From a virus (lineage: Duplodnaviria; Heunggongvirae; Uroviricota; Caudoviricetes): a DNA stretch of 39,122 bases. Every line of letters begins with the position of its first letter. Positions within the stretch are counted from its first letter, which is position 1. The DNA is taken from the IMG/VR virus record IMGVR_UViG_2869924733_000008. One strand, given 5' to 3'. Shown here in pieces: positions 10,348 through 34,295 of this stretch. The notes beneath the pieces are model-generated. The model did no database searches. It was not told the DNA's origin and was given only the letters and a program-made list of their open reading frames with translations. Made by a program: the position numbers and the translations under genes.

Positions 10348-11800
10348 TGAGGTAGCCTGAGTTTAACGGACACTCCTTCCTGAAATAGAATGGCATCAGA
10401 AGGAGCTAATAATGAGCAGAAAAACCCAACGTTACTCTAAAGAGTTCAAAGCCGAAGCTGTCAGAACGGTTCTTGAAAATCAACTTTCGATCAGTGAAGG
10501 CGCTTCCCGATTATCCCTTCCTGAAGGCACTTTAGGACAATGGGTTACCGCCGCCAGAAAAGGGCTCGGTACTCCTGGTTCCCGCACGGTGGCTGAACTG
10601 GAATCTGAAATTCTGCAACTGCGTAAGGCGTTAAATGAAGCTCGCCTTGAGCGAGATATATTAAAAAAAGCAACTGTAGATTCAATTGGTCAACGCAACA
10701 GTTATGTGAAAACATGGGGTTGCGGAGGTTTTTTGAATGAGACGAACATTTACAGCAGAGGAAAAAGCCTCTGTTTTTGAACTATGGAAGAACGGAACAG
10801 GCTTCAGTGAAATAGCGAATATCCTGGGTTCAAAACCCGGAACGATCTTCACTATGTTAAGGGATACTGGCGGCATAAAACCCCATGAGCGTAAGCGGGC
10901 TGTAGCTCACCTGACACTGTCTGAGCGCGAGGAGATACGAGCTGGTTTGTCAGCCAAAATGAGCATTCGTGCGATAGCTACTGCGCTGAATCGCAGTCCT
11001 TCGACGATCTCACGTGAAGTTCAGCGTAATCGGGGCAGACGCTATTACAAAGCTGTTGATGCTAATAACCGAGCCAACAGAATGGCGAAAAGGCCAAAAC
11101 CGTGCTTACTGGATCAAAATTTACCATTGCGAAAGCTTGTTCTGGAAAAGCTGGAGATGAAATGGTCTCCAGAGCAAATATCAGGATGGTTAAGGCGAAC
11201 AAAACCACGTCAAAAAACGCTGCGAATATCACCTGAGACAATTTATAAAACGCTGTACTTTCGTAGCCGTGAAGCGCTACACCACCTGAATATACAGCAT
11301 CTGCGACGGTCGCATAGCCTTCGCCATGGCAGGCGTCATACCCGCAAAGGCGAAAGAGGTACGATTAACATAGTGAACGGAACACCAATTCACGAACGTT
11401 CCCGAAATATCGATAACAGACGCTCTCTGGGGCATTGGGAGGGCGATTTAGTCTCAGGTACAAAAAACTCTCATATAGCCACACTTGTAGACCGAAAATC
11501 ACGTTATACGATCATCCTTAGACTCAGGGGCAAAGATTCTGTCTCAGTAAATCAGGCTCTTACCGACAAATTCCTGAGTTTACCGTCAGAACTCAGAAAA
11601 TCACTGACATGGGACAGAGGAATGGAACTGGCCAGACATCTAGAATTTACTGTCAGCACCGGCGTTAAAGTTTACTTCTGCGATCCTCAGAGTCCTTGGC
11701 AGCGGGGAACAAATGAGAACACAAATGGGCTAATTCGGCAGTACTTTCCTAAAAAGACATGTCTTGCCCAATATACTCAACATGAACTAGGCTGTGTCCC

Positions 11801-12316
11801 TTAATTACGTAAGCGTTGATAAAAGAGTCGGATGCAGCCCAGTTTCACCATCGCCAGGTAATTTCTCGCCGTTTTGTCGTAACGCGTGGCGATGCGGCGA
11901 TATTCTTTCAGCCGCCCAAAGCACCGTTCAACGACATTACGATTGCAGTACGCATCACGATCAAGCTGTGCACGTCCATCCGATGCCATTTTCTCATTTG
12001 ACTTTCGGGGGATTACTGCCTTTATACCGTTATTTTTCAGCTCGTTGCGCAATGCGCGCCCTGAATACGCTTTATCAGCCAGTACCGCATGTCCACGGCG
12101 TTTCATGCTGCCGTTCTGACGCTGAACGCCAATCCCGTCCAGAAGTCGTTGCGCGAACTGGCTTTCATGAGCTTGTCCGGGGCTTAGCACGATATTTAAC
12201 GGGAGGCCACTTCCGTCTGTTGCCAGATGGATTTTGGTGCCAAAACCGCCGCGAGAGCGACCCAGCCCATTATCTCCGTCGATATCGGGATGTTTTTTTG
12301 AGCACCGGCGGCACAT
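11801..12316 (-). CDS. IS5-family transposase orfB (DDE region; probably joined to orfA by frameshifting)
   Basis: Overlaps orfA by about 120 nt in another frame; contains DKAYSG, typical of DDE transposases of this group. Confidence 0.5.
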   Translation of the reverse strand: MCRRCSKKHPDIDGDNGLGRSRGGFGTKIHLATDGSGLPLNIVLSPGQAHESQFAQRLLDGIGVQRQNGSMKRRGHAVLADKAYSGRALRNELKNNGIKAVIPRKSNEKMASDGRAQLDRDAYCNRNVVERCFGRLKEYRRIATRYDKTARNYLAMVKLGCIRLFYQRLRN

Positions 12317-12645
12317 TTCAGCGCCCGGATATTACTGCCATCCAGCGCGGTGGCAGACCAGTCAATAAAGCCGTTTGCATCAAGTAGCGAAAGCAACCTG
12401 TTGAAAATAATATTAATCACGCCTGACTTTGACCATCGGTTAAAGCGGTTATAAACAGTTTTCCATGACCCATATCGTTCGGGTAAATCGCGCCATGGTG
12501 CACCGGAACATAACACCCAGAACATGCCATTGATGATTTTACGGTGCTCAGCCCATGGGCGTCCGGCCCGTGGTGTGGCGGGTTCAGGAGGTAACAGGGG
12601 CTTGATGATGGTCCATGCCTCATCGGGAAGGTCGTAGCGAGCCAT
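12196..12645 (-). CDS. IS5-family transposase orfA (149 aa)
   Basis: Contains ..PWRDLPERYGSWKTVYNRFNRWSKSGV.., a motif typical of the N-terminal part of IS5-family (IS427-group) transposases. Confidence 0.6.
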   Translation of the reverse strand: MARYDLPDEAWTIIKPLLPPEPATPRAGRPWAEHRKIINGMFWVLCSGAPWRDLPERYGSWKTVYNRFNRWSKSGVINIIFNRLLSLLDANGFIDWSATALDGSNIRALKCAAGAQKNIPISTEIMGWVALAAVLAPKSIWQQTEVASR

Positions 12646-12890
12646 AGTTCAATATGTTGTGTAAACAGACAGTTACTATAGCTCAGATGATTAAGGGACA
12701 CAGCCTAGATCTGGTTGCTGCTCAGCTAAACAACAGACCGAGAAAGACACTGAAGTTCAAAACACCGAAAGAGATAATTGAAAGGGGTGTTGCATTGACA
12801 GATTGAATCTACAACAGCGTATTTTGCACAGGAGTCGCTGAAAAATACGCGTTAATCGAACAATGGCGACAACAATTTCCCATTGAAGCG

Positions 12891-13709
12891 ATGTGTCAGG
12901 TATTTGGTGTATCCAGGAGCGGTTATTACAACTGGGTACAGCATGAACCCTCAGACAGAAAACAAAGTGATGAGCGGCTAAAACTGGAGATTAAGGTGGC
13001 ACATATCCGCACTCGCGAAACATATGGAACCCGGCGGCTCCAGACGGAGCTGGCAGAGAATGGCATCATCGTTGGTCGTGACCGACTGGCACGTCTTCGT
13101 AAGGAGCTAAGGCTACGCTGTAAGCAGAAACGCAAGTTCAGAGCGACTACGAACCCGAACCACAATCTGCCAGTTGCGCCAAATCTGCTGAACCAGACGT
13201 TCGCTCCTACAGCACCAAATCAGGTCTGGGTGGCGGACCTGACGTATGTTGCCACACAGGAGGGATGGTTGTACCTCGCTGGCATCAAAGATGTTTATAC
13301 GTGCGAAATTGTCGGCTACGCCATGGGAGAGCGCATGACAAAAGAGCTGACAGGTAAAGCCCTGTTTATGGCGCTCAGGAGCCAGCGCCCACCTGCCGGG
13401 CTAATCCACCACTCTGATCGAGGTTCACAGTACTGCGCATACGATTACCGGGTCATACAGGAGCAGTTTGGTCTGAAAACATCAATGTCGCGTAAAGGTA
13501 ACAGTTACGACAACGCTCCGATGGAAAGCTTCTGGGGAACGCTGAAAAATGAGAGCCTGAGCCACTATCGTTTTAATAACCGGGATGAAGCCATCTCAGT
13601 AATACGGGAATACATTGAGATTTTCTACAATCGTCAGCGTCGTCACTCTCGTCTGGGGAATATCTCCCCGGCAGCCTTCAGGGAAAAATATCATCAGATG
13701 GCTGCTTAA
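12891..13709 (+). CDS. IS600 orfB (transposase catalytic part, 272 aa)
   Basis: [25 protein letters not shown]... with DDE-type motifs (..[11 protein letters not shown].., ..[10 protein letters not shown]..); follows orfA of the same element. Confidence 0.8.
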   Translation: MCQVFGVSRSGYYNWVQHEPSDRKQSDERLKLEIKVAHIRTRETYGTRRLQTELAENGIIVGRDRLARLRKELRLRCKQKRKFRATTNPNHNLPVAPNLLNQTFAPTAPNQVWVADLTYVATQEGWLYLAGIKDVYTCEIVGYAMGERMTKELTGKALFMALRSQRPPAGLIHHSDRGSQYCAYDYRVIQEQFGLKTSMSRKGNSYDNAPMESFWGTLKNESLSHYRFNNRDEAISVIREYIEIFYNRQRRHSRLGNISPAAFREKYHQMAA

Positions 13710-13752
13710 AAAAAGAACAAATGGTAGTGTCCGCTATTGCCAGTACACCTCA

Positions 13753-15064
13753 TTGTTAATCTGTTTCTTCTGCGCCTCCGTCAGTGTCACCCCTTCACGG
13801 ATCCCTCCCCAGCGTTTGTACTGCTGGATAACGTCACTCATTGACGCTGCAACCAGCGCCCGCCCTTCATTGTTGTAGGGGATCGTCTGGTTTGACTTGA
13901 ATAACGCGATCACCGCCCCCTGCAAACTGGCATTCAGCCAGATTTGCCCGCAGAAACTGTCCAGCCATTTAAAATCACCGGTAATAGTGCCATCCGCCCA
14001 GTAATCTTCCACCACACTGTTTTCCGCATATTTTCCGTAGAAATTGTAACCTGCGGCGATCAGCGCATCATAATCGCTGCCACTGGTAACATCAGCGGCC
14101 AGCCCCTCATACTCGCGGAACTTGAATGATACACACCCCTCTGGTCGGACAAAATCAAGGCACGCTGCATACCCCAGTACCGCTGCAGCCCGGTTACCAT
14201 CAGTCGCGAAAACAGGTACAACAGAGCTGTAGTTATTGACAGCAATTATCTGGTAAGCGATGTGTTCAGTACTGCCTTTTACTCTGGCGTTGCCGCTGGT
14301 TGTCCATGCCACATAAAAGTAACGCTTGCCCTGCCCGTTTGCCCATGCAGAAAACGCCAGGTGTTGCTCGTCAGTGACCTCAGATACCGTGGAAAAACCC
14401 GCCCATTGCTGGGAAGCGGCCTTAATGGCTGCCATTGTGTCAGGGACATCAGATACAGGCGCGCCCCGGGATATCACCGCACCGGTGTTACTGGTCATCT
14501 TCAGGAGTTCTGTGCCGATCCACTGCCGAACGTTATCGTGGTACTCCCGGGTTTCGCCCCGGCGACAGTAATGACAAAAGCATTCTGTGTGGTATCGAAT
14601 ACCACTGTAGCCACTGCTGCGGTCAGCGCTGTCTGTAGTGCCGTTGCAGCAGCGGCGAAGCTGGCGACACCGTTAAAATTCACTTCAATGCTGACGCTTT
14701 TCCCGTTAATACTCAGCATCAGCGTGCCGGAAAGTTTTTGTAGCTGTTCAACAGTCGCGCCCTTAAACGAACCGCTACGTAACCAGGCCGCCGATGGGGC
14801 AGGACTGAAACGGGAAAACAACAATTGCCCCGGCGTCCTGGTGGCATTTTTGAAGCCCTGGAAATAAAGCTGAGCGCGTGCGTACTCATCGGATAATGCA
14901 CCAAAATACGCGGCCACATCATCCGGAGAGGAAAACGGAACCACAGTGCCGACCGGAAGTAACGGATTACTGGTCAACAGCAGGCCGTTAAGATCGACGG
15001 CATTACCCGCCACAGCCAGCACACCGGGATTTATCTGTACATCTTTACTGAGTGGAATTGGCAT
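13753..15064 (-). pseudogene. Tail sheath protein gene, frameshifted and 3'-truncated by IS600
   Basis: Two ORFs in different frames (14501-15064 and 13734-14498) switch near 14498-14503. The last five codons and the stop of the downstream ORF lie inside IS600. Sheath assignment is by size, position and N-terminal pattern (recall). Confidence 0.5.
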
Positions 15065-15590
15065 TATCAGCCTCCGTTGTCCGGGTGATCACGTTGTCAA
15101 AAAACATCAGGGAAGTTGTGACCACAGGGTTAATCTGCATCTGAATATCAAGCGTCCAGCGCGGTTCATACTGTTGCTGACCGTTGGGGAATGTGGTGTT
15201 AAAGGGCTCTGAGCAATACAGCGGGGAAATCAGCCCACCGCCCTGCCGGAAAAGCCGTACGGAAAATTCAGACCGGAAAAGCGTTGCCAGCACCTGCGCG
15301 TTATCTGCCGCGTGAGGGCCGTAGAAATCAAGCTGGCAACGCCATTTTGTGGTACGGGTGATATGCTGAGAGCCCTCACCAGCCTGCGCTGGCGCAGAAT
15401 ATGCCACTACCGCAGTGGATAATCCGGTAACATCAATGCCCGTCATGGTGATGAAATTCCCCTGAGGCATCGGGACCTGGTTCTGCTGCGTTCGTTCAAT
15501 CCCGGCATCAGAAAAAAGCCCCCGGAGATAATCACCGAGGGCCTGATAAAGAGCGCTTTCCGTAACGGAGAGGGTCACACCTGAAGGCAT
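15045..15590 (-). CDS. Phage structural-module protein, function unknown (neck/tail completion position)
   Basis: 181-aa ORF, tightly packed with overlapping start/stop in the head-tail joining region. Confidence 0.4.
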
Positions 15591-15940
15591 ACAATAACCC
15601 TCGTCCAGTCAGGCCAGATTTCCGGTACCTCAATCACCAGCCACGTTTCATCGCCAATAACAAATTTATCGCCTCCCTGTTGCCGGGCACGGTTAAGCCC
15701 GCACCAGTTACCATCGGTATACAATGTGGCGAAAACTCCCTGCTGGTTAAGATTATCAAGATGACGTAAATCAGCCTGGGTGACAGCCTGCTTTTGCACC
15801 CTGACAGAAACCGGATCTTCATACTCAGGTACGCGGGAATAATCTGCCTGCTGTGTACTCCCGCGGGAACGATAAACCAGCGCGTCTGTAAAGGGATTTA
15901 CCCGACGTACTGCGCCGGAAACAATACCGTGAAAGTTCAT
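15575..15940 (-). CDS. Phage structural-module protein, function unknown
   Basis: 121-aa ORF with ATGA overlap to the upstream gene. Confidence 0.4.
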   Translation of the reverse strand: MNFHGIVSGAVRRVNPFTDALVYRSRGSTQQADYSRVPEYEDPVSVRVQKQAVTQADLRHLDNLNQQGVFATLYTDGNWCGLNRARQQGGDKFVIGDETWLVIEVPEIWPDWTRVIVCLQV

Positions 15941-16521
15941 TTTTTGCCCCCGTCTACAGAATAATCAACGCTGTCCATCATATGTCCGGTTTCAATAAGC
16001 GGGTTGTTAAAACCCTTTTGCCGGGCAGTGGATGCAGCGTTGGGCGGACTTTCCCAGTCGCGAACAGACATCTGCAACTGCCCTTTGATATGTTCTCCCA
16101 TACACACCAGAGCGGTCGCAGTATCAAAATCATTCGCCCGTAATAAGGTCGCCATTTTTTCGCCCCATTCGGGACTTTTATGTTCGATCATCTTACGGAA
16201 GAACGGACGGGGGGGAATGGTGACCGTGTGCTCAGGAATAACCACATCCTGAACAAAATTCCCTTTACCGGCTTTGACAAAGCGGTGCCCGGTTTCTCCC
16301 GTTTTTTCGTTATAGCGAAAGTGGAGCGTCTGCTCACGGGCGGGTATGACCGCTCTTCCACCAAACTCCTGAACTGCGGCAATATAAGCCACTGACGTAC
16401 CGTCAGGGTAAGTTGCTCCCTCAAGAAAACCCACTTTGAGTTTTTTACCCAATGAAAGGTTCGCGGCAACCTGTTTCAGCTTCTGCCGGAACTGTTTGCC
16501 ACCTGTGACTTTATTTACCAT
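15937..16521 (-). CDS. Head-tail connector protein (HK97 gp10-like, tentative)
   Basis: Probable start is the internal ATG at 16521 ([11 protein letters not shown]...); the longer ORF to 16791 would overlap the upstream gene. Family call is from weak recalled similarity. Confidence 0.4.
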
Positions 16522-16969
16522 CGACGCCCCTCCCGTATCCCCGGTAATAATGCCCCGGATATCGCGAAGGTGACCCCCCGGAATGATACTGCATTGAGCG
16601 GTATGGCGCTGTCGCCTGCCAGTAGTCAGCACCCCAGGGGGTCTGGAGATACCACCACGACGCATCATTACTGCCGCTATTATCCACCGATACCGATACA
16701 GAACCTTCCGACGCACTGGTGATACGCCCCACCAGACCAGCCTGCCCGTCTCTCCCGTTTCCCAGCCCCCGCAATGCGCACAGATGCGCAACCAGCAGGA
16801 ACAGAAGCTGTTCCCGCTCCTTCAGGTCGGTAACCGGACTGTCGTCCGTGTTATCCTGGTACAACGCGGTCGCCTGGTTAAACACCGCCGTCAGTAGCTC
16901 CGGTGTCACCGTGGAAAACTCCGGGTACAGACTGACAAACATCCGACAGTCAAACATCACCGTACCCAT
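16511..16969 (-). CDS. Head completion/connector protein (DUF4054-like)
   Basis: 152-aa ORF in the conserved slot after the capsid gene; N-terminal ..[14 protein letters not shown].. pattern (recall). Confidence 0.4.
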
Positions 16970-16974
16970 AGCGT

Positions 16975-17322
16975 TTACTCCTGAGGTTTACCCATCACTT
17001 CATCATTGCGGTTAACGCCCGGAGCCGGATTTTTCTGCGGCAGCGGTTCAAGGCCGGATTTAACGGCTTTCTGCTCCGTAGCCTGCGAGACTGCACTGTT
17101 CGCCTTATCCTGCGCAAAAATAACGCCATTTTTCACATAAGGTTGCTGTCCGTGCTCCGCCAGCCAGGCGTCAAAAAACACCTTATCGACCTGCGTCAGA
17201 CCATAGCCCCCCACAATTTTAACCGCGTTATTCCGCCAGCCTGTCACCTGAACCCGTTTCTGCCCCACTTCCAGCACCAGACCGTTCGGCAGTTTACAGC
17301 CCACTGTTACCATTTCAGCCAT
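16975..17322 (-). CDS. Small phage head-associated protein, function unknown
   Basis: 115-aa ORF between the capsid and connector genes. Confidence 0.35.
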
Positions 17323-17325
17323 AAC

Positions 17326-18354
17326 TCACACCCCAAGCATTTGTGCATACGCCAGCGGCTGGCGAATAATCGCCCCCCAGGTACCAGCGGATTTTTTCTG
17401 TTTCCAGGAAGACGTATCTACCCCTACCGCATGGGCGCGCATTTTTTCAGTGAAAGCGCAATAGCCTGTATCCTGTTCACCCAGACGCTCCGCGATAAGC
17501 TGTACCAGCTCGCCAGCGTCAGAGGTGTATTCCACCGCCGTTTCAATGGTCATCGCCGGGAAATTTTTCGCCAGCAGATCGGACACGTTAACCCTGTACT
17601 GGTTTGTTTTGGTGAGGTTCACCTCTGCCAGCGGCGACATGCACAGTTTCATTTTGTCGGTACGCTCAATATGACCGTTAGTCTGTTTCACCAGTTGCTT
17701 AAAGAGTTTCACGATATCGTCATACACGCCCTGTCCGTCCTTGTCGTCCCACTTCAGTTTACCGTCAACGGTATCCGGGGTGATTGGTGCAGATAACGAC
17801 GGATCATTCAGCAAACCGTAGTTCGTCAGTCCGGCAATACCGTAGAAATAGGACTTATTCTGGAACTTATTCAGCGTCAGTGCTGACGCCACGTTCAGCT
17901 CTGCCGCCCAGCCAATACGGGCTGCGCCGTACATCTCCAGCTCACGTTCGCCCCATACGGTGAAGGTCTGGAAGTGATAGCTCTGGCGCGGTACCCAGTT
18001 GACGTTTGCGCTTACCACCCCGTTGTTGCTGTAATCCCCGTAGGAACTCACCTCCCCGTCAGATTCTGCAATCGGGAATTGTGCCGACAGTGTCGTCCAG
18101 TCACCTTTTTTGGTTTCGCCCAGAATCTGAGCGGCTTTCATCGGCGTCACCAGCACGCGGATCAGTTCTGGCTCAACGTAATTGGTGAAATACGCAGGGA
18201 TACCGCTGTTAGCCGCTGTGACCAGCGCAGGCTGCGCGTCCATCGCCAGTCCGTAATCGGCGGCGTACTCCTTCGGCAAATAAGCCTGTGCTCCGGGAAG
18301 AATAATCCCGTAGTCGCGACTTGCCGTCGCATAATGCTGTTTAAATTTATTCAT
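17326..18354 (-). CDS. Major capsid protein (putative)
   Basis: 342-aa ORF in the canonical position downstream of the portal/scaffold genes; size and composition fit a major capsid protein. Confidence 0.5.
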
Positions 18355-18836
18355 TATTTGCTCCAGGTACTGATCTTAATGACTTCTTTTGCCGCCGCAG
18401 CGCTGGCAACGGAAAACCAGGTTTCGACAAACCCCGCCATCGAGGTGCCAGCCGCCCCCGTGGCTATCTCCCCGGTGGCCAGTGAGGCAAATACTTTCTG
18501 CCCGATCGTCGCAGTAGTGGTGGTCAGCGCCCAGAAATCCCCCGACACCATCAGGGTGCATTCACGCCCCGGATAAATGGTGTTCGAGTCCCCGGCCAGC
18601 CATTCCACAATGGAAGCCTGCCCGTCACGAGGAACAAAACCCGCCGGTGCGCCGGCCCCCTTATTAGCGGCAACACCTTTGGTTACCCAGGCAAACCGGG
18701 CAATTACCAGCCCGTCAGGGCCGGTAATCAGCCCGCCATCTCCCGCCACATACGAGGCATGAGGGTTAGCACTGGCAAACGCCCCCGGAATACCCGGTGC
18801 CGGGTACTGGTTCATGTGTGTCTGAAAAGTATTCAT
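18354..18836 (-). CDS. Head structural/decoration-type protein (putative)
   Basis: 160 aa, Gly/Ala-rich, directly upstream of the capsid gene with a 1-nt overlap. Confidence 0.35.
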
Positions 18837-18837
18837 A

Positions 18838-20198
18838 TCAGTAACCTCGTTTCAGTTTTGCACCGGGGAAATCTGCCGCAAACGTCGATGCGCTGGCCTG
18901 ATCCATCGCCACACGGGGAGAGGATTTGGCCGTCTGCTTCTGCTCAACGGCAAACTTCACCATGCTGCGGTACGCACCGGGGTGAATACCCTGAATATCG
19001 ATCCCCGTCTGTTCCAGCGCGGTACGGTAAACATCTTCGGCGCAGTCCATCGCCACCACATCGCCACCACATCGCCAATCAGCGGTCGCACTTCAGCTTC
19101 AGCCACACGGACGGCGCGGAAATTTTCAGCAGCCCGTTTCGTTGCCTGGTCAGTTGCCAGCCTGATTGCTGCATCCATCGCAGGTTTATCGACTTTCACA
19201 TCGTCGGGTTTCACATCAGCCTCTTTTGTTTCGGGGGCTTCGTCGGTTGTCGGAGACAGTGCGGATTTAATTTTTTCCAGCACATCATCAGGAACTTTGC
19301 CGGACAGCAACGCCAGTACACTTTCCATCGGGCTGTCGGTATCAAATGCCTTCGACTCGTCAGTTAACCCGGTATCATCATCCCCGACCAGCTCCGGTAC
19401 GGCTTCTGCTGATTCCATCAGTTGCGCCAGCTCCACCGGTTCAATATCCATATCCTGTGCCAGCCGTTCGCTGTAAGCAGTTTTTACCGCGCTGGCGATA
19501 GCTGCCGGACGCTTATACTGCGCCATCAGGCGTAACAAATCCCCGGGAGCCGCATCCTGCGCCAGACGCGGCGCAAGATAGGTTCCCAGCGCGGTAAGCA
19601 CCGCCACTTCTTTTTTACTCAGTTTCATGCGTTTTAGCTCCTGAGGGAGAGAGTCCATAACAAGACAGTCCGACCCTACCCGGCCATCGCCGACCAGGGC
19701 CACATGATTTCCCACGATATTCCGCATAACGCCGTCATACGGCTCACCGTCGGGGGTGGTTCCCGGCGTCATATCTGCCACATAGGCATATGACGATGAG
19801 ATTTCCCGTTGTTCATCCGTTTCTATCCCCGCGATGGCGGAGTTGTCCCAGATGGACATGCCGTTAACCAGATAGGTACCGTCAAACTCGCTGTTGGCAT
19901 GAGTCGTCCCCACCCGGTACTCGCGCGCGGGCGCGCCCGGATAATCGGGTTTGTGTCGGCACAGGACGGGAATATTGTTGAAGGTTGAAACTGCCTTGCG
20001 CAGTTCATCGGGGTCACGGTAAAGCTGATAAAGTTTTTTGGGGTCGAGTCCCAGCGCTTCCGCCCCCGGTATTTCATACCCGAAATAACCGCAGACGTTC
20101 GCCTTGCTGAGATTACTGCGCTCAATCTGGAGGCGACCGACTTTATCGAACTGCCTTACCGATGCCCGGTCAAACGCCAGCATTTCGGTAATAATCAT
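18838..20198 (-). pseudogene. Head scaffold/protease-like gene, frameshifted by an 11-bp tandem duplication
   Basis: Removing one copy of the duplicated 11-mer at 19051-19072 joins ..PLIGDVVAM to [13 protein letters not shown]... (ORF 18838-19059) in frame. Probable start is the ATG at 20198 ([10 protein letters not shown]..). Confidence 0.6.
19051..19072. repeat. Perfect 11-bp tandem duplication (CGCCACCACAT x2 on the plus strand) inside a head gene
   Basis: Read directly from the sequence; causes a frame change in the minus-strand gene. Confidence 0.9.
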
Positions 20199-20966
20199 TT
20201 TTTCTCCAGTCCGGGAATAACGGCCTCCCAGCCACACCGGCAGTTGATTTCTTCGCCCGGCAGTACCCACTTACCATCCAGAAACATCCCCTTTCGCAGG
20301 TCAAACCGTTTACCGTTCGCCTTCACATGCGACGGACGCCATGTTTTACCCGCGCGGGAATGCCTCCAGACACCTTCAGTGATACCCACCGAACGCTGTC
20401 TGGCGGCCTGCATTACCGACGTTGCCTTATTGTTCTGGTCGCGGGCAATCAGCACCGCGCGCCGTCGTGTGATGCCGTAACGTTTTTCCAGTTCATCGGT
20501 CAGCGTTTTCAGGTCACGTCCCCGGCCAACAGACTGCATGACCAGTGTTTCCACCTGGGGGAGATGTTGCTGCGGGATGGAGCGAATGAGGTTCACATTC
20601 TCCGTGATGCTGGCCTGAAGTGCGGTATTCATCTCCGTTGTCATACGGAAAGGAACCGTAAACCCGGCATCACGGAGCGCAGTGTACAGTGACGCATCGC
20701 TGTTTTTCAGGACATCACCGGCAAACCGCCTCGCCAGCCGCAGGGCCATTTCGTCAAAATTTTTCTGCCAGCGCCGGGCAAGTTGCTGCATGGCACCACG
20801 CATCAGGTTAACGGGGGACGCATCCTGCGCGAGGTCTGTTTTACGGTACTCAGCCCGCAGCCAGTAAAGTACACTGTTGTGCATCCCACTGACGGCATTA
20901 TCCAGTTGTCTGCGGTACCAGGCCTCAATCCCCGCGTTGGGTGAAATCCGCCTCAGGGTCTGCATT
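20195..20966 (-). CDS. Head morphogenesis protein (Mu F / SPP1 gp7-like)
   Basis: Sits between the portal and scaffold-like genes; C-terminal ..[10 protein letters not shown].. fits the Mu-F-like family. Start is ambiguous: Met at 21016, 20966 or 20881. Confidence 0.55.
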
Positions 20967-22475
20967 CGGGCCTTGCGGCGGATTTTCTTCGGTGTTGTCA
21001 ATTTCAGTGTCGTCAATTTCGATGTCCCCGCTCAGGTCAATACCGCTGTACGGGCTGTCCTGCGCAGTCGCCAGCCGTTCGCGTACTTCGTTATTGGTCA
21101 CTGCTCCGGTGCTCTCATAAATCTGATCCGTTTCCGCCTCAGTTTTACGGATATTCGCCAGTTGCTCGCGCGTCAGCTCATGCAGGGGTTCAAATTCAAA
21201 CGTGATATCAGGATCGATATCGCCGAACTCAGACAACTGGATAATATCCAGCACCTTTTTCAGCGGTTTCTTCAGAAGACGGGTGGCAAGTGCAGCAATG
21301 GTGTCGTAAAACCCCCGGATTTCACCCTCACTCGACGCATTCAGTCCCGTTGGGCTCAGCCCGGCGAATTTTACGGACGGTATGGCACTGACAAAGAACA
21401 TGTGTTCCTGTACCTGCGCCTGAAGGGTGTCGAGGCCGCTCAGGGGAGTGTTGAACTGGAAAAACTCTTCGTTCGTCTTGTCCAGCATCAGCAGCCCGCG
21501 GTTATCACGGGTACGGTTAAACAACTCCGCGCGTTTTGCGTAATTCGGGTCCCTTTTACCACTTAATACCTGTGTCATATCCGTCTTAATCCCGCTCAGC
21601 GAAAACGAATGCAGCATATCGCCCACGCTGTCGCGTGTTCGCAGCCAGTTATCAACATAAGGCTCAGCAATCTGAACCAGTGACAGGCCGCCAAAGTTGT
21701 AGGCCGGCTTCAGCATGTCCGGAACCGGACGGGAGATCAGATCAATCATGCGGCTGGCGTGAACCGTTTTTCCCATTACGTACCATTCGGACGGACGGTA
21801 AAAATCATCACTCAGCGGATTATCCGCGTTATATATACCCGGATACGTCCAGACGGGTTCAATAACACGAAGCCCCAGCAGGGAACCTTTCGGGATTTTT
21901 TTGTCGGAAATAAACAGTCCGGATCCCAGCTCCGCCGGGTCAGTCCAGGCAGATATACCCGATGGCGAACGCACATCAATATAAATCTGCCCTCGCCCGA
22001 AAAAGCCGTCGTGCTCAATCGCCAGTCTGAAAACGTCCTGTACGTTATAGTGCTCCAGTGCGTCAGTAAGCTGCGCTATGCGTGACGCGTGGCTGTCGTC
22101 CCCTTCTCCGACCGCCTTAACCTTTATCCACTTACGGGTCATCTCCTCGGCAAGCACACTGACCATACGCCGGTACTCCGGTAACTGCGCCTGAAGTGCC
22201 AGATACGGATAGCCCGGGAAACCACCATAAACAAAATCAGGATAATGACTGTTCAGGGTGTCATACGGTGTTGCATCCATTGCCAGCACAGCATCGCGAA
22301 CCGGTGCCGGGATAACGCCCGGTGGTGGCTCATAGCGAACAAACTCCCTCCGTGGTTTCTGCCGGACGGAAGCGATCACCTCATCGTTAATTTCCGGTGG
22401 CTGTGGTTCAGGTTGTTTGTCCGGTACCGCCGGCGCTGACGGTTCTTTTCGTTTAAACGGCCACATCAGATCCAC
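20925..22475 (-). CDS. Portal protein (putative)
   Basis: 516-aa ORF immediately downstream of the terminase large subunit gene, with an acidic C-terminus. Confidence 0.6.
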
Positions 22476-23754
22476 TCCATAAAGTCATCAGAAATTACGA
22501 TGGGCATTTCCATCGGGGCATAAGCAATCATCACAGAATCAGCCAGGTTTGGAGATTTCGTTCCGTCAGGTTGCTTATCCACAAGAATTTTTCCGGTGGC
22601 ATTTTTTGACCAGGTAGGTTGTGACAGCTCCATCAACAGCCGGTCTTTATTTTCCATTGTGCTGCTGATGGAAATAATCTCATCCGGGTCATACTCCATA
22701 CCCTGTAGTGCACGAAATGTATTGCGGAATAATTTGCGAAGATGCCACCACCCCTGGGCTTTGGCATTGACAAAAAAGTCCTTATTCAGACGAGCCGGTT
22801 TACCATTATCACCGGGAACAGCTTCATTTTCAGGATGAAACACGCTCCCGCTGCCCCGGAATGGAGTGGCGGTGATTTGACAGATGCCCTCCGCTTCACG
22901 CAGTTCGTTGATAGCGCGCGCATCACCACGAACGCCAGCACCCAATCCGTCCTCATCAAAGCGAAACTCATCGGCACCAAAGTCATCGCACAGACCAAAA
23001 ACCTTAACCACAGAGTCATAGATGTCACTCCCCTTACCTGACCACTCCTGTACGTCATTCAGCAGGATGCCATAACGGAGCGAACAGGCGTTTTTATCCC
23101 GCCCTTCGTCGGCGACATCCATTGCACCAAGCCGTTGGCCGCCGGGCTGAATGCCCAGTCTGATATGTGCATCAACCGCAGCCTGTACCCATTCTGAGGG
23201 GATCAGGATGCCTTCTGCTGATGCCTGGTAATTAAGATCCAGTTCCTGGGCAACGATGACTGGGTTATCAATTTTCTCGCACTCCTTGTGATACCACTCA
23301 TCGTCTTTACGCGGATCGCTACGCCAGTGAAACGTAAACACCGGGATTTTTCCACTGTGCCGCTTCTGTGCGAAGGGGTTGTTCATGCCGTTAACCGATG
23401 AGAGATCGATACGACGTCGGGTTGTCTGAGAAAGCGCGGCATCAATAAGTAATGGTCGCTGGAGAAAAGCAGCCTCATCCACAAAATAAAGGGTCGTACG
23501 GTCACCACGACCGATATTATCGCCAGCCTCACCTTTGATAACCGCGCCAGTTTCAGGAAACTCAACACGCATATATGGCGCATGCTTCTTCTCGCTCCAC
23601 GAACCGCGAAACTCTACAGGTAGTGTTTCCACGAACTTGCACGCCTTCCAGAACAATGCTTTCGGGTCACCGGTGCTGTCGACGTATTCCTCTTTACGGG
23701 AGCCGAAACCGATAACCATTTCTTTGTTGAAGAGACAAAGCGAGCAGGCCAGAG
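22466..23754 (-). pseudogene. Terminase large subunit gene, 5'-truncated by IS600
   Basis: Walker-B-like [11 protein letters not shown] is present but no Walker A lies upstream; the frame runs straight into the IS600 end at 23755 (the apparent Met at 23770 is IS sequence). Confidence 0.65.
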
Positions 23755-24283
23755 TGAGGTGTACTGGCAATAGCGGACACTACCATTTGTTCTTTTTTTA
23801 AGCAGCCATCTGATGATATTTTTCCCTGAAGGCTGCCGGGGAGATATTCCCCAGACGAGAGTGACGACGCTGACGATTGTAGAAAATCTCAATGTATTCC
23901 CGTATTACTGAGATGGCTTCATCCCGGTTATTAAAACGATAGTGGCTCAGGCTCTCATTTTTCAGCGTTCCCCAGAAGCTTTCCATCGGAGCGTTGTCGT
24001 AACTGTTACCTTTACGCGACATTGATGTTTTCAGACCAAACTGCTCCTGTATGACCCGGTAATCGTATGCGCAGTACTGTGAACCTCGATCAGAGTGGTG
24101 GATTAGCCCGGCAGGTGGGCGCTGGCTCCTGAGCGCCATAAACAGGGCTTTACCTGTCAGCTCTTTTGTCATGCGCTCTCCCATGGCGTAGCTAGACTGG
24201 CCCCCTGAATCTCCAGACAACCAGTATCACTTAAATAAGTGATAGTCTTAATACTAGTTTTTAGACTAGTCATTGGAGTACAG

Positions 24284-24649
24284 ATGATTGATGTCTTAGG
24301 GCCGGAGAAACGCAGACGGCGTACCACACAGGAAAAGATCGCAATTGTTCAGCAGAGCTTTGAACCGGGGATGACGGTCTCCCTCGTTGCCCGGCAACAT
24401 GGTGTAGCAGCCAGCCAGTTATTTCTCTGGCGTAAGCAATACCAGGAAGGAAGTCTTACTGCTGTGGCCGCCGGAGAACAGGTTGTTCCTGCCTCTGAAC
24501 TTGCTGCCGCCATGAAGCAGATTAAAGAACTCCAGCGCCTGCTCGGCAAGAAAACGATGGAAAATGAACTCCTCAAAGAAGCCGTTGAATATGGACGGGC
24601 AAAAAAGTGGATAGCGCACGCGCCCTTATTGCCCGGGGATGGGGAGTAA
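24284..24649 (+). CDS. insC: IS2 InsC (orfA, 121 aa)
   Basis: [47 protein letters not shown]... matches recalled IS2 InsC. Confidence 0.9.
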
Positions 24650-25512
24650 GCTTAGTCAGCCGTTGTCTCCGGGTGTCGCGTGCGCAGTTGCACGTCATTC
24701 TCAGACGAACCGATGACTGGATGGATGGCCGCCGCAGTCGTCACACTGATGATACGGATGTGCTTCTCCGTATACACCATGTTATCGGAGAGCTGCCCAC
24801 GTATGGTTATCGTCGGGTATGGGCGCTGCTTCGCAGACAGGCAGAACTTGATGGTATGCCTGCGATCAATGCCAAACGTGTTTACCGGATCATGCGCCAG
24901 AATGCGCTGTTGCTTGAGCGAAAACCTGCTGTACCGCCATCGAAACGGGCACATACAGGCAGAGTGGCCGTGAAAGAAAGCAATCAGCGATGGTGCTCTG
25001 ACGGGTTCGAGTTCTGCTGTGATAACGGAGAGAGACTGCGTGTCACGTTCGCGCTGGACTGCTGTGATCGTGAGGCACTGCACTGGGCGGTGACTACCGG
25101 CGGCTTCAACAGTGAAACAGTACAGGACGTCATGCTGGGAGCGGTGGAACGCCGCTTCGGCAACGATCTTCCGTCGTCTCCAGTGGAGTGGCTGACGGAT
25201 AATGGTTCATGCTACCGGGCTAATGAAACACGCCAGTTCGCCCGGATGTTGGGACTTGAACCGAAGAACACGGCGGTGCGGAGTCCGGAGAGTAACGGAA
25301 TAGCAGAGAGCTTCGTGAAAACGATAAAGCGTGACTACATCAGTATCATGCCCAAACCAGACGGGTTAACGGCAGCAAAGAACCTTGCAGAGGCGTTCGA
25401 GCATTATAACGAATGGCATCCGCATAGTGCGCTGGGTTATCGCTCGCCACGGGAATATCTGCGGCAGCGGGCTTGTAATGGGTTAAGTGATAACAGATGT
25501 CTGGAAATATAG
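24607..25512 (+). CDS. insD: IS2 InsD (orfB, 301 aa)
   Basis: [41 protein letters not shown]... matches recalled IS2 InsD. Confidence 0.9.
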
Positions 25513-26029
25513 GGGCAAATCCAGTAGCCGACAATTTCGCACGTATAAACATCTTTGATGCCAGCGAAGTACAACCATCCCTCCTGTGTGGCAACATACG
25601 TCAGGTCCGCCACCCAGACCTGATTTGGTGCTGTAGGAGCGAACGTCTGGTTCAGCAGATTTGGCGCAACTGGCAGATTGTGGTTCGGGTTCGTAGTCGC
25701 TCTGAACTTGCGTTTCTGCTTACAGCGTAGCCTTAGCTCCTTACGAAGACGTGCCAGTCGGTCACGACCAACGATGATGCCATTCTCTGCCAGCTCCGTC
25801 TGGAGCCGCCGGGTTCCATATGTTTCGCGAGTGCGGATATGTGCCACCTTAATCTCCAGTTTTAGCCGCTCATCACTTTGTTTTCTGTCTGAGGGTTCAT
25901 GCTGTACCCAGTTGTAATAACCGCTCCTGGATACACCAAATACCTGACACATCGCTTCAATGGGAAATTGTTGTCGCCATTGTTCGATTAACGCGTATTT
26001 TTCAGCGACTCCTGTGCAAAATACGCTGT

Positions 26030-27250
26030 TGTAGATTCAATCTGTCAATGCAACACCCCTTTCAATTATCTCTTTCGGTGTTTTGAACTTCAGTGTCTTT
26101 CTCGGTCTGTTGTTTAGCTGAGCAGCAACCAGATCTAGTTCATGTTGAGTATATTGGGCAAGACATGTCTTTTTAGGAAAGTACTGCCGAATTAGCCCAT
26201 TTGTGTTCTCATTTGTTCCCCGCTGCCAAGGACTCTGAGGATCGCAGAAGTAAACTTTAACGCCGGTGCTGACAGTAAATTCTAGATGTCTGGCCAGTTC
26301 CATTCCTCTGTCCCATGTCAGTGATTTTCTGAGTTCTGACGGTAAACTCAGGAATTTGTCGGTAAGAGCCTGATTTACTGAGACAGAATCTTTGCCCCTG
26401 AGTCTAAGGATGATCGTATAACGTGATTTTCGGTCTACAAGTGTGGCTATATGAGAGTTTTTTGTACCTGAGACTAAATCGCCCTCCCAATGCCCCAGAG
26501 AGCGTCTGTTATCGATATTTCGGGAACGTTCGTGAATTGGTGTTCCGTTCACTATGTTAATCGTACCTCTTTCGCCTTTGCGGGTATGACGCCTGCCATG
26601 GCGAAGGCTATGCGACCGTCGCAGATGCTGTATATTCAGGTGGTGTAGCGCTTCACGGCTACGAAAGTACAGCGTTTTATAAATTGTCTCAGGTGATATT
26701 CGCAGCGTTTTTTGACGTGGTTTTGTTCGCCTTAACCATCCTGATATTTGCTCTGGAGACCATTTCATCTCCAGCTTTTCCAGAACAAGCTTTCGCAATG
26801 GTAAATTTTGATCCAGTAAGCACGGTTTTGGCCTTTTCGCCATTCTGTTGGCTCGGTTATTAGCATCAACAGCTTTGTAATAGCGTCTGCCCCGATTACG
26901 CTGAACTTCACGTGAGATCGTCGAAGGACTGCGATTCAGCGCAGTAGCTATCGCACGAATGCTCATTTTGGCTGACAAACCAGCTCGTATCTCCTCGCGC
27001 TCAGACAGTGTCAGGTGAGCTACAGCCCGCTTACGCTCATGGGGTTTTATGCCGCCAGTATCCCTTAACATAGTGAAGATCGTTCCGGGTTTTGAACCCA
27101 GGATATTCGCTATTTCACTGAAGCCTGTTCCGTTCTTCCATAGTTCAAAAACAGAGGCTTTTTCCTCTGCTGTAAATGTTCGTCTCATTCAAAAAACCTC
27201 CGCAACCCCATGTTTTCACATAACTGTTGCGTTGACCAATTGAATCTACA
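26030..27250 (-). mobile_element. IS30 (1221 bp) inside IS600 copy 2
   Basis: IS30 terminal repeats at both ends; 2-bp duplication (GT on the plus strand) at 26028-29 and 27251-52. Confidence 0.9.
26037..27188 (-). CDS. insI: IS30 transposase (383 aa)
   Basis: [38 protein letters not shown]... full length, identical to the other intact copies. Confidence 0.95.
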   Translation of the reverse strand: MRRTFTAEEKASVFELWKNGTGFSEIANILGSKPGTIFTMLRDTGGIKPHERKRAVAHLTLSEREEIRAGLSAKMSIRAIATALNRSPSTISREVQRNRGRRYYKAVDANNRANRMAKRPKPCLLDQNLPLRKLVLEKLEMKWSPEQISGWLRRTKPRQKTLRISPETIYKTLYFRSREALHHLNIQHLRRSHSLRHGRRHTRKGERGTINIVNGTPIHERSRNIDNRRSLGHWEGDLVSGTKNSHIATLVDRKSRYTIILRLRGKDSVSVNQALTDKFLSLPSELRKSLTWDRGMELARHLEFTVSTGVKVYFCDPQSPWQRGTNENTNGLIRQYFPKKTCLAQYTQHELDLVAAQLNNRPRKTLKFKTPKEIIERGVALTD

Positions 27251-27952
27251 GTTGCTTTTTTTAATATATCTCGCTCAAGGCGAGCTTCATTTAACGCCTT
27301 ACGCAGTTGCAGAATTTCAGATTCCAGTTCAGCCACCGTGCGGGAACCAGGAGTACCGAGCCCTTTTCTGGCGGCGGTAACCCATTGTCCTAAAGTGCCT
27401 TCAGGAAGGGATAATCGGGAAGCGCCTTCACTGATCGAAAATTGATTTTCAAGAACCGTTCTGACAGCTTCGGCTTTGAACTCTTTAGAGTAACGTTGGG
27501 TTTTTCTGCTCATTATTAGCTCCTTCTGATGCCATTCTATTTCAGGAAGGAGTGTCCGTTAAACTCAGGCTACCTCAGGTCTTCCGACGATTCTGTCATT
27601 GTTCATTAAGCAAAAGTTTCCATGCTGTTTGTGCTTATTCTAAGCAACCGGGCAGCATCATACGGGGCAATTATGGCCGCATTACCATACATGCAACTGT
27701 ACATAGCTAATTACCTGGCTGACACCATGCATTTGTCAGCAGAGGAGCACGGCGCGTATTTGTTGCTGATGTTCAATTACTGGCAAACAGGAAAGCCAAT
27801 ACCCAAAAACAGGTTGGCAAAAATTGCCCGTCTGACTAACGAGCGATGGGTTGATGTTGAACCATCCTTGCGGGAGTTTTTTTGTGATAACGGCGACGAA
27901 TGGATGCATCTTCGGATTGAGGAAGATCTGGCATCTGTCAGTGGATTTGCCC

Positions 27953-28858
27953 CTATATTTCCAGACATCTGTTATCACTTAACCCATTACAAGCCCGCTG
28001 CCGCAGATATTCCCGTGGCGAGCGATAACCCAGCGCACTATGCGGATGCCATTCGTTATAATGCTCGAACGCCTCTGCAAGGTTCTTTGCTGCCGTTAAC
28101 CCGTCTGGTTTGGGCATGATACTGATGTAGTCACGCTTTATCGTTTTCACGAAGCTCTCTGCTATTCCGTTACTCTCCGGACTCCGCACCGCCGTGTTCT
28201 TCGGTTCAAGTCCCAACATCCGGGCGAACTGGCGTGTTTCATTAGCCCGGTAGCATGAACCATTATCCGTCAGCCACTCCACTGGAGACGACGGAAGATC
28301 GTTGCCGAAGCGGCGTTCCACCGCTCCCAGCATGACGTCCTGTACTGTTTCACTGTTGAAGCCGCCGGTAGTCACCGCCCAGTGCAGTGCCTCACGATCA
28401 CAGCAGTCCAGCGCGAACGTGACACGCAGTCTCTCTCCGTTATCACAGCAGAACTCGAACCCGTCAGAGCACCATCGCTGATTGCTTTCTTTCACGGCCA
28501 CTCTGCCTGTATGTGCCCGTTTCGATGGCGGTACAGCAGGTTTTCGCTCAAGCAACAGCGCATTCTGGCGCATGATCCGGTAAACACGTTTGGCATTAAT
28601 CGCAGGCATACCATCAAGTTCTGCCTGTCTGCGAAGCAGCGCCCATACCCGACGATAACCATACGTGGGCAGCTCTCCGATAACATGGTGTATACGGAGA
28701 AGCACATCCGTATCATCAGTGTGACGACTGCGGCGGCCATCCATCCAGTCATCGGTTCGTCTGAGAATGACGTGCAACTGCGCACGCGACACCCGGAGAC
28801 AACGGCTGACTAAGCTTACTCCCCATCCCCGGGCAATAAGGGCGCGTGCGCTATCCAC
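27953..28858 (-). CDS. insD: IS2 InsD (orfB, 301 aa)
   Basis: Same protein as 24607-25512, apart from one substitution. Confidence 0.9.
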
Positions 28859-29181
28859 TTTTTTGCCCGTCCATATTCAACGGCTTCTTTGAGGAGTTCA
28901 TTTTCCATCGTTTTCTTGCCGAGCAGGCGCTGGAGTTCTTTAATCTGCTTCATGGCGGCAGTAAGTTCAGAGGCAGGAACAACCTGTTCTCCGGCGGCCA
29001 CAGCAGTAAGACTTCCTTCCTGGTATTGCTTACGCCAGAGAAATAACTGGCTGGCTGCTACACCATGTTGCCGGGCAACGAGGGAGACCGTCATCCCCGG
29101 TTCAAAGCTCTGCTGAACAATTGCGATCTTTTCCTGTGTGGTACGCCGTCTGCGTTTCTCCGGCCCTAAGACATCAATCAT
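28816..29181 (-). CDS. insC: IS2 InsC (orfA, 121 aa), cut off from the IS2 left end by IS630
   Basis: [13 protein letters not shown]...; the longer ORF to 29238 is read-through from the IS630 end. Confidence 0.85.
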
Positions 29182-29198
29182 CTGTACTCCAATGACTA

Positions 29199-30351
29199 AA
29201 TAGCTGCGCTTAATACCGCTACACTTTTGCCAGTCCATGTTTGCCTCCGGGGAATGGGCTGACGGTTTCCATAAAATGGCGAACTTTTTTCAACAGTTGC
29301 CACATTGAGCGGCACTGATGATTACGCGTTATTGTGTCGTGAAGTGCCTGCCATAGCCGTTCAACATGATTCACCCATGGCGAGTAAACCGGCTGATAAA
29401 TGACCCTGAACTTCGGGTTCTCCTTCAGCCAGCTCTGTGTTTCCCGGCTTTTGTGGATAATGTAGTTGTCCACGATCAGCGTGATGGTTTTCGCCCGACG
29501 GTATGTCGCTTTAAGCCGCTTCAGCAGGCTGATGAACAGCGCCGAACTTTTGCTGTTGCCGCCCACATAGCTGACTTTACCTGTCCCGCTGTGCAGCGCT
29601 CCGGCCAGATAATATTTTTCATTCTGTCCCGGCGTGACCACCCGTTTTTGCTGTCCGCGCAGTTGCCAGTCCGCACCGATTTTGGGATAAAGATGGATAT
29701 CCACTTCATCTTCATAAAAGACCGGATGCTCTGCGCTGCATTCGTCCAGTGCTTTATGGATTGCTGCCATCTTTTCATCTTTATGCGGGTCACGGATACG
29801 CAGAGTTGGCGCAGCCCTTCGCCACACAATCCCCGCAGACGGCAACCAGCGGCGAACGGTTCCGGCATTTAACTGGCAACCGGTTATCTCATTGATTTTT
29901 ATTGCCAGCAGTTCTGTACTCCAGCGTGAACGCTGGTAGACAAAGTCGCCGGGAGAATGTTTTACCAGCTCACGTAACAGTGTGCAGATATGCTCAAACG
30001 GCCAGCGACGGGCACGCCCGGCAGGTAATGATTTCAGTCCCTCAACACCCGACTGCGTGAACCAGTTAATCCAGCGTCCAACAGAGGAACGGGCGCAGCA
30101 GAGCGTTCTGGCAACGTCGCTGACACGGTCGCCCCGGTGCAGCATCAGCATGGCAGTCAGTCTGCGGGCATAATTTTTATCGTGTGTTTTATGGATGGCT
30201 TTCTGCATCAGGCGTCGTTCGTCACGGGAAATTGGTGCTATGATCGGCATTGCTCAGTCCGGTTGGTGATTTGTTTTGATTTGGCGATTGATCAGATCGC
30301 ACAATCCGGGCTAAGTTCCCTCAAAGTGATCTACTATTCCGCGCAGCTATT
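29199..30351 (-). mobile_element. IS630 (1153 bp) inserted in the IS2 left-end region
   Basis: Terminal repeats AATAGCTGCGC.../...GCGCAGCTATT; TA duplication inside the IS2 sequence ..AGACTAGTC.. (CTAG target). Confidence 0.85.
29219..30250 (-). CDS. IS630 transposase (Tc1/mariner superfamily, 343 aa)
   Basis: [31 protein letters not shown]... matches recalled IS630 transposase; size is exact. Confidence 0.85.
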
Positions 30352-30536
30352 TAGTCTAAAAACTAGTATTAAGACTATCACTTATTTAAGTGATACTGGT
30401 TGTCTGGAGATTCAGGGGGCCAGTCTAGTCAGAGAAAAATTAACCAAAAAATCAGCCGCAGGAAAAGCATCTGTTCAGGCCAGAAGAAGCAGAAAGGAAG
30501 CAGATGTTCAAACAAAACAAGAGAGAAATTTAACAG

Positions 30537-31289
30537 GTGTTCGAACATGATGCCAACACAAAGGCAACTAATAAAGATACAGATAAAGCTCTAAAAACAG
30601 ATCTAACCCATCCCAAACCCTTCCCTTCCGGAAGGGAGTTTCGGGATTTTGTGGCTGGAGTGCTTGAGGGGAGATTATCTGGCGGTACTGCAGCGGAATT
30701 TTGTAATTCTGCGGTGGTTGCGTTGCAGGCTGCTGGCCTGGATGTCTGTCGTGAGTATCCGGTGCCAGAGCGTGGTGACGGTTGCGGAGGGCGGATTGAT
30801 ATCGTCGTGACTGACAGGAACGGTGTCCGGTGTGGGATCGAGCTTGACCGAAATTCTCCGCGACAGAAATCACTGCTCAAAATCGGTGCTGTTGAAACCG
30901 GGATATGTGTCTTGCGGCGCAGTGATATCGCAAGGCACACCGAGCAGGGAATTCTGGTTATCGGTGGGGCTGTTCGCCAGAAAAAATTTGACCCGTTGTC
31001 AGTTGATCTGCCCGACTGGTTGCCAGAAACACTCTGGCATGAGTGGGTCCAGTTCAGGCAGGCATTGCGAAAACCGATTCGAACGGAGCAGGGCGCTAAC
31101 GGGGCGATACGGGAACTGGAAAAATTCCGTCAGCAGGGTTTTACACCTGAGCAGGTGATTCGACACAGCATCGCCAATGAATACCATGGTCTGTTCGCGC
31201 CGAAAGGTGTTCGGCCTGAGACGTTGCTCCGACAGGTTAACACCGTCTCGTTGCCGGACAGTGCGATCCCGCCAGGCTTCAGGGGGTAA
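30537..31289 (+). CDS. Phage replication protein with DnaT-like C-terminal domain
   Basis: C-terminus ..VNTVSLPDSAIPPGFRG parallels the recalled E. coli DnaT C-terminus (..NTVSEPDSQIPPGFRG). Apparent GTG start overlaps the stop of the upstream DUF1376 ORF; the two may be one frameshifted gene or two genes. Confidence 0.5.
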   Translation: MFEHDANTKATNKDTDKALKTDLTHPKPFPSGREFRDFVAGVLEGRLSGGTAAEFCNSAVVALQAAGLDVCREYPVPERGDGCGGRIDIVVTDRNGVRCGIELDRNSPRQKSLLKIGAVETGICVLRRSDIARHTEQGILVIGGAVRQKKFDPLSVDLPDWLPETLWHEWVQFRQALRKPIRTEQGANGAIRELEKFRQQGFTPEQVIRHSIANEYHGLFAPKGVRPETLLRQVNTVSLPDSAIPPGFRG

Positions 31290-31295
31290 CAGACC

Positions 31296-32042: not shown

Positions 32043-32056
32043 TTTCAGGAGGATTT

Positions 32057-32158
32057 ATGGCGAAACCTTTTACTCCCGAACAGCGGGAAGAACTGAAGAC
32101 GCGAATTGTGGAACTCGTGCATCAGGACGGTCGGGTCACGATTCGGCAGTTGTCAGAT
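32057..32158 (+). pseudogene. Small phage gene truncated after 34 codons by the IS911 end
   Basis: MAKPFTPEQREELKTRIVELVHQDGRVTIRQLSD, then a TGA supplied by the first bases of the IS911 inverted repeat. Confidence 0.4.
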
Positions 32159-32166
32159 TGAAGTGG

Positions 32167-34295
<2,129 letters not shown>

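Follow-up and report, generated by a model that had tools for sequence, protein, structure and literature searches.

An inherited 11-bp tandem duplication in the head-maturation protease gene of a defunct Shigella-type prophage

The DNA considered here, IMG/VR virus record IMGVR_UViG_2869924733_000008 (Duplodnaviria; Heunggongvirae; Uroviricota; Caudoviricetes), is a stretch of 39,122 nucleotides, which as a whole is called the window below. It carries a row of phage head genes in the order portal (DUF1073/Phage_portal_3), Mu-F-like protein, DUF2213 protease, cement/minor capsid protein and major capsid protein. The protease gene is broken in this row: read on the minus strand from the ATG at 20198 it is 1361 nt long, which is not divisible by 3, and near its 3′ end an 11-mer stands twice in perfect tandem. 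The features of the gene are as follows.

19051..19072, minus strand: the 11-mer twice in perfect tandem, CGCCACCACAT on the plus strand and ATGTGGTGGCG on the coding strand; one copy in surplus compared with all relatives having an intact module
19048..19077, minus strand: period-11 tract of 30 nt and 2.7 copies; ancestral form of 1.7 copies, CATCGCCA-CCA-CATCGCCA
18838..20198, minus strand: the DUF2213/PF09979 prohead-protease gene in full, a pseudogene of 1361 nt in this window; 1350 nt and 449 aa in relatives
18957..20198, minus strand: frameshifted frame as encoded, 413 aa, with 380 native and 33 aberrant residues (ending TAAW) and a TGA stop at 18957-18959
18838..19047, minus strand: displaced native C-terminus, residues 381-449 and stop, out of frame; three predicted helices (383-394, 403-421 and 430-439) and the KLKRG[YF] tail
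19650..20162, minus strand: N-terminal DUF2213 domain, residues 13-183, with a predicted T4 gp21/herpesvirus assemblin protease fold; kept in the truncated product

The duplicated 11-mer and the reading frame

An original prediction made from the letters alone had placed a perfect 11-bp tandem at 19051-19072. Its coordinates and description were exact, as seen by reading the sequence, by script and by Tandem Repeats Finder: CGCCACCACAT lies at 19051-19061 and again at 19062-19072, and the plus-strand order is GCAGTCCAT-CGCCACCACAT-CGCCACCACAT-CGCCAATCAGC. Tandem Repeats Finder reports the tract at 19048-19077 with a period of 11, 2.7 copies, 100% matches and a score of 60, which makes it the top-scoring array in the window. 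Shuffling the window 300 times with dinucleotides preserved never produced 19 matches in a row at a period between 7 and 40, and the value expected analytically is about 5e-6.

On the minus strand, the 11 extra nucleotides follow codon 380 (Met380) of a gene of 449 codons. The sequence coding for residues 381-449 persists at 19047-18841 and is seen in the list of open reading frames (ORFs) as a 73-aa ORF starting with GTG (18838-19059). Removal of one 11-mer in silico gives a frame of 1350 nt encoding 449 aa and ending in KLKRGY, and this repaired protein is present verbatim in the protein collection (P0002). It covers the whole PHROGs profile phrog_2229, 'head maturation protease' (E 3e-186), end to end, in agreement with the claim that deletion of a single copy restores the frame; the 73-aa ORF alone matches positions 359-427 of the 428 in this profile, the last 69 (E 3e-24). 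When the repaired protein was aligned with 15 homologues of 61-96% identity, colinearity was restored and the C-terminus was found to be strongly conserved, with the pattern D-[CS]-AE-[DE]-VYRTALEQ ... HPSA[YF] ... KLKRG[YF] following an invariant motif of 11 residues. The frameshifted tail aligns with nothing among these homologues, and the claim of a frameshift in an otherwise conserved head gene thus stands. The locus is best annotated as a pseudogene, the frameshifted DUF2213 head-maturation protease gene of a defective prophage, and neither the 413-aa nor the 73-aa ORF should count as a gene.

How many copies do the relatives have? The same module is found at 98-99% identity in eight complete Escherichia coli genomes, several of them enteroinvasive. 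Compared with the 1501-nt query, seven of the eight matches span 1490 nt, exactly 11 fewer, and the eighth spans 1505 nt owing to a separate in-frame insertion of 15 nt. In these genomes RefSeq has an intact 449-aa 'DUF2213 domain-containing protein'. By direct alignment these close relatives have exactly one copy of the 11-mer, which bears out its status as a duplication, and one copy was counted in every examined E. coli/Shigella record with an intact head module (13/13). The other 13 examined records belong to a lineage whose terminase is truncated by an insertion sequence (IS); 12 of them have two copies, one has three and none has one. The two-copy junction occurs in 12 distinct records. 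Two are complete chromosomes (CP027027.1 and CP026824.1), one is the 712-kb contig UYIS01000021.1, one the draft contig JAAOUC010000147.1, and eight are Logan assemblies of independent ERR/SRR runs. The three-copy form is found in SRR2994194 (Logan contig L030, in which 4704-4760 corresponds to 19048-19077 of the window); it has 22 additional nucleotides and is still out of frame, and the contig is reported in three samples. A protein identical to the 413-aa product is on record as VDG89078.1, under the name Shigella dysenteriae, and at least 18 contigs encode it. Over 21,242 nt the window and CP027027.1 are 100% identical; a literature search for CP027027 found nothing.

With at least two copies in 13 records, the duplication cannot be put down to assembly error; it is an inherited allele, and the tract was later expanded once more. 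The opposite polarity, with the single-copy state as the derived form, was considered and rejected, as only the single-copy frame fits the C-terminus conserved throughout the family. An exact scan of a genome contig collection for the duplicated junction gave no matches, a collection of one genome per species that is uninformative on frequency, and megablast of the gene region against a phage collection gave no match. Alleles of intact prophages have in-frame indels, also of slippage type: a 15-bp tandem duplication (DVKPD) in the acidic linker in P0013 and L002 (RMDEC465), and a 12-bp deletion (RLMA) in P0010 (S. boydii ATCC 9905).

The intact protein and the part that is lost

The intact protein matches Pfam PF09979 at residues 15-183 (157 bits versus a cut-off of 22; E 5.6e-46). 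This family has been labelled DUF2213 and was recently renamed Pa193_gp24; both names were seen in the hits here. A search of 1.84 billion representatives gave a family of 8364 members, and nearly all of the best 150 reach about position 435-440 of the 441 in the profile. H82, S134 and H165 never vary among 65 sequences at about 40% identity, and past the break D381, A383, Y387, A390, L391, A405, A427, D429 and P441 are still conserved. An AlphaFold model built from this diverse alignment has a mean predicted local distance difference test (pLDDT) score of 82.5; it replaced an earlier AF2 model (pLDDT 59) that was too poor for a fold search, its alignment being shallow and limited to sequences of at least 60% identity. 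The model has a beta-rich N-terminal domain, acidic linkers of low confidence, a long helix at 338-374 and helices at 383-394, 403-421 and 430-439; helices are also predicted at 290-298/304-314. The break after residue 380 costs the last three predicted helices and the basic tail.

A fold search with the predicted model found for the N-terminal domain the fold characteristic of assemblins and T4 gp21. This fold, together with the position of the gene between the portal/MuF and cement/major-capsid genes, agrees with the original prediction of a head protease- or scaffold-like gene. As judged from the model, the intact protein is best seen as a putative prohead protease of the assemblin fold, to which a helical, scaffold-like tail is fused. 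A modestly useful by-product concerns PF09979: the domain is still listed under 'unknown function' or 'scaffolding', and it is modelled here with confidence as a protease of the T4 gp21/assemblin fold whose His-Ser-His set is invariant. The truncated product retains the protease domain and is without the C-terminal module conserved in the family, and on these grounds it is very probably non-functional in head assembly.

Some members of the family have additional parts. In two proteins of 655-656 aa (P0105 and P0115; Cronobacter and a Logan assembly) the DUF2213 protease-scaffold is fused to an ADP-ribosyltransferase toxin domain (PF03496), possibly a cargo delivered with the capsid, and many distant representatives carry an extra 150-350 residues at the N-terminus. 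The DUF2213 N-terminal domain of BCAM1066 of Burkholderia cenocepacia was called 'essential' in a study using transposon sequencing (Tn-seq) and CRISPR interference (PMC8770471), an odd call for a domain to which the fold search here points as a prophage head-protease.

State of the surrounding prophage and order of the lesions

An intact reference prophage is present in the enteroinvasive E. coli (EIEC) strain CFSAN029787, where it adjoins sitABCD and continues through tail, lysis and lambdoid early genes. Three segments of the window in the tail-fibre/baseplate part (1-2887, 3089-3848 and 5302-9409) and the 10-kb head/neck block at 13751-23752, which is 99.6% identical, are collinear with this reference. 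Neighbouring features that bear on the state of the prophage are as follows.

18354..18836, minus strand: downstream cement/minor-capsid gene (PF23982/PF22758), whose ATG lies 1 nt past the protease stop in the intact state
13315..13752, no strand assigned: IS3-family arm by which the sheath gene is cut short at its 3′ end; identical to 23755-24192 in inverted orientation, and the left end of the 10-kb block
23755..24192, no strand assigned: inverted IS arm cutting the large-terminase-like gene, of which a 417-aa remnant of a 539-aa protein is left; the end of the prophage
14511..14513, minus strand: sheath frameshift by a 1-bp deletion (CTGCTGCC to CTG-TGCC), which breaks the DUF3383 sheath-like gene in two (13734-14498 and 14501-15064)
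6882..6889, minus strand: baseplate frameshift by loss of one CTGA unit, (CTGA)2 as against (CTGA)3 in the reference; the baseplate J/gp47 gene is left as two ORFs, 6060-6842 and 6845-7297

Relative to the EIEC reference, a tail-fibre/baseplate gene has received a 1.45-kb insertion of the IS110 family at 3849-5301 (transposase ORF 4081-5277). The IS-filled region at 9410-13750 (an IS66 fragment, IS30 and an IS3-family, IS600-like element) takes the place of about 4 kb in the reference, where a baseplate protein, an SLT/tape-measure protein, the tube and chaperones are encoded. The head/neck block is flanked by perfectly inverted IS3-family arms of 438 nt, between which an inversion could take place. 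From 23753 to 39122 the window consists mostly of IS (IS2, three IS30, two of the IS630 family and IS3-family copies), along with what is left of DnaC/IstB-like replication genes (30537-32042) and, at 38283-39122, a gene of the phage-integrase family that is cut off by the end of the window. With its IS insertions, the lost tape-measure region, the truncated terminase and two further small frameshifts, the prophage is defunct. Relative to the reference, the 10-kb block has 15 non-synonymous and 10 synonymous substitutions, a ratio that is a weak sign of relaxed constraint. The loss of a CTGA unit from the baseplate J/gp47 gene is a second frameshift of slippage type in the same prophage.

Upstream translation in the window stops about 120 nt short of its normal end before the cement gene, and this early stop may weaken translational coupling to that gene. 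Neither the loss of the protease product nor a weakened coupling is likely to matter, because the prophage cannot package DNA or build a tail. A scan for promoters and terminators around the protease gene found nothing above the shuffle expectation.

The lesions can be ordered in part. Every contig that encodes the exact 417-aa terminase remnant also has at least two copies of the 11-mer, so that the duplication may have come before or after the terminase truncation and the tape-measure deletion. The 1-bp deletion in the sheath gene is younger than the duplication, since two contigs (L006 and L008) have the duplication together with an uninterrupted sheath ORF of 443 aa. The portal gene is split in L006 and L029. 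Three contigs (L027, L028 and L030) have a C-to-T change at nt 556 of the already frameshifted protease gene (window 19643), by which CAG becomes TAG (Q186*), and in L030 the third copy of the 11-mer was then gained on top of Q186*. The protease gene of CP026824.1 (L022) has the duplication and three further 1-bp deletions, and many of the neighbouring genes are split; these extra lesions could be further decay or homopolymer errors of long reads. The protease gene kept gathering lesions, as expected of an unconstrained pseudogene. The nested lesions could be used as simple lineage markers in the Shigella dysenteriae-type clade: first the duplication, next Q186* and last the third copy, the sheath and portal frameshifts being separate.

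Origin of the duplication and comparison with known systems

Direct alignment with relatives shows that the ancestral sequence, CAT-CGCCACCACAT-CGCCA, holds CATCGCCA twice at a spacing of 11 bp, that is, an 8-bp direct repeat. Short direct repeats are a classic substrate for replication slippage, which duplicates the unit between them. What is expected of a slipped-strand duplication is all found here: perfect head-to-tail copies, a single-copy ancestor with a flanking repeat, and a length not divisible by 3, which breaks a conserved frame. The slipped-strand origin suggested in the original prediction is backed by the ancestral CATCGCCA repeat and by the third copy in one sub-lineage.

The sequence of events may be outlined as follows. 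In a myovirus-type prophage integrated beside sitABCD, slipped-strand mispairing between the two pre-existing 8-bp CATCGCCA repeats, 11 bp apart, would have duplicated 11 bp of the head-maturation protease gene. The frame shifts after Met380, so that the assemblin-fold domain and the acidic/helical middle are kept and the C-terminal 69 residues give way to 33 nonsense residues and an early stop. The allele was inherited throughout a Shigella dysenteriae-type lineage, whose prophage is disabled also by IS events and point lesions, among them the truncation of the terminase, the IS-mediated loss of the tape-measure/baseplate region and the IS110-family insertion in the tail-fibre gene. Decay went on afterwards with Q186* and the third 11-mer. 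It is highly probable that the allele is a slippage duplication, inherited in the course of the unselected pseudogenisation of a defunct Shigella-type prophage. The duplication itself is probably without phenotype, because the gene sits in a prophage remnant disabled by IS elements, deletions and two more frameshifts.

Could the second copy be an artefact of sequencing or assembly, the real genome having a single 11-mer? The window is the sequence of a single genome at the assembly level only; however, the identical two-copy junction occurs in 12 records from different projects and the three-copy form in one more, and a tract of 2.7 copies of an 11-mer is well inside the read length and atypical of collapse or expansion errors. 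A true single copy, named beforehand as the observation that would overturn the claim, is excluded by these 13 independent records with at least two copies, which leaves an artefact next to no probability. It might instead be supposed that the tract is a functional switch, either as a reversible contingency repeat or through a programmed frameshift that bypasses the break, so that the gene is still used, for example with a protease-only isoform and a C-terminal peptide translated separately from the GTG/ATG at 19059/19050. The variation of the copy number (1, 2 and 3), the GTG/ATG-started ORF spanning the native C-terminus and the fact that four copies (+33 nt) would bring the frame back all suit this supposition. 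Yet the copy number tracks the lineage, as none of the 13 truncated-terminase records is back to one copy and all 13 intact-module records have one; a phase-variable repeat is thus not indicated by 13 records with one copy, 12 with two and one with three and no reversion, a comparison made across records. The three-copy sub-lineage has Q186* upstream, so the frame is not being maintained there. As to frameshifting, the sequence at the break, ATG TGG TGG CGA TGG ACT, was read as having neither an X XXY YYZ slippery heptamer nor a prfB-like +1 site, relatives use a single continuous frame, and the lineage includes a further nonsense mutation. The exact 73-aa ORF is not among the called proteins in the protein collection, and a prophage without a complete terminase and tape measure offers no evident role for a head protease. 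A switch is thus very improbable. Equally slim is the chance of a more elaborate version, in which a hypermutable 11-nt tract (1 to 2 to 3) toggles a C-terminal capsid-targeting module and would restore the frame with a fourth copy, or in which the free protease domain has a cellular role in Shigella.

Selected inactivation deserves somewhat more weight but is still improbable. The duplication may have been the first hit on an active prophage, or may have removed a costly or toxic protease-scaffold, and been fixed by selection. It is common to all sampled members of the degraded lineage and older than the sheath, portal and Q186* lesions, and it may also be older than the IS events. On the other hand, it is indistinguishable from the many other lesions of the prophage, the ratio of substitutions in the 10-kb block fits relaxed constraint over all genes, and IS-rich Shigella genomes gather pseudogenes by drift. 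No genome with the duplication in an otherwise intact prophage was found, which also weighs against selection.

Several points tell against unselected decay by slippage as outlined above. The records are assemblies and not reads, and a mixture of copy numbers within a sample may exist. The duplication itself could be the first lesion to kill the prophage, because all contigs with the truncated terminase already hold at least two copies. The proposed loss of function of the truncated protein draws on conservation, and the capsid-binding helix-turn-helix of Pa193 gp24 aligns, weakly, at about residues 290-314, upstream of the break. Overall, this is ordinary slipped-strand gene decay with no new mechanism and nothing novel, and its importance beyond annotation is slight.

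The sole solved relative found by sequence is Pa193 gp24 of a Pseudomonas phage (PDB 9B40), matched at E of about 4e-4 to 7e-4 over the N-terminal domain; it has the same architecture, gene position and Pfam family (PF09979) as the protein here. It has been described as a 'putative scaffolding protein' whose residues 286-326 form a helix-turn-helix pentamer beneath the five-fold vertex of the capsid, and the passages of that paper covered here describe no protease domain for it (PMC11456595). Pa193 gp24 is very distant, and its helix-turn-helix aligns, in a weak profile alignment of its region 300-328, with residues retained before the break. T4 gp21 and the herpesvirus assemblins (of Epstein-Barr virus, human cytomegalovirus, varicella-zoster virus and Kaposi's sarcoma-associated herpesvirus) share the predicted fold and are only 13-19% identical to the protein here; unlike them, this protein has a fused helical/acidic C-terminal extension of 260 residues, and its gene is broken in the window. 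The nearest named phages with a homologue, which have no match at the nucleotide level in the phage collection, are temperate phages of Klebsiella (for example ST899-OXA48phi17.1, ST15-VIM1phi2.1 and KP12), with 68% identity, and the Aeromonas phages vB_AsaM-56 and 4_D05, with 37% identity and the RefSeq name 'head maturation protease'; the gene is intact in both groups. As a lesion, the allele compares best with the slipped-strand frameshift pseudogenes of decaying Shigella/EIEC prophages, which it resembles in the perfect duplication at a short direct repeat, in the single-copy relatives and in the IS-riddled remnant with other frameshifts, including the (CTGA)3-to-2 contraction in this element. 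There is no essential difference from that class, and the case is unusual only in the re-expansion of the tract to three copies in one sub-lineage.
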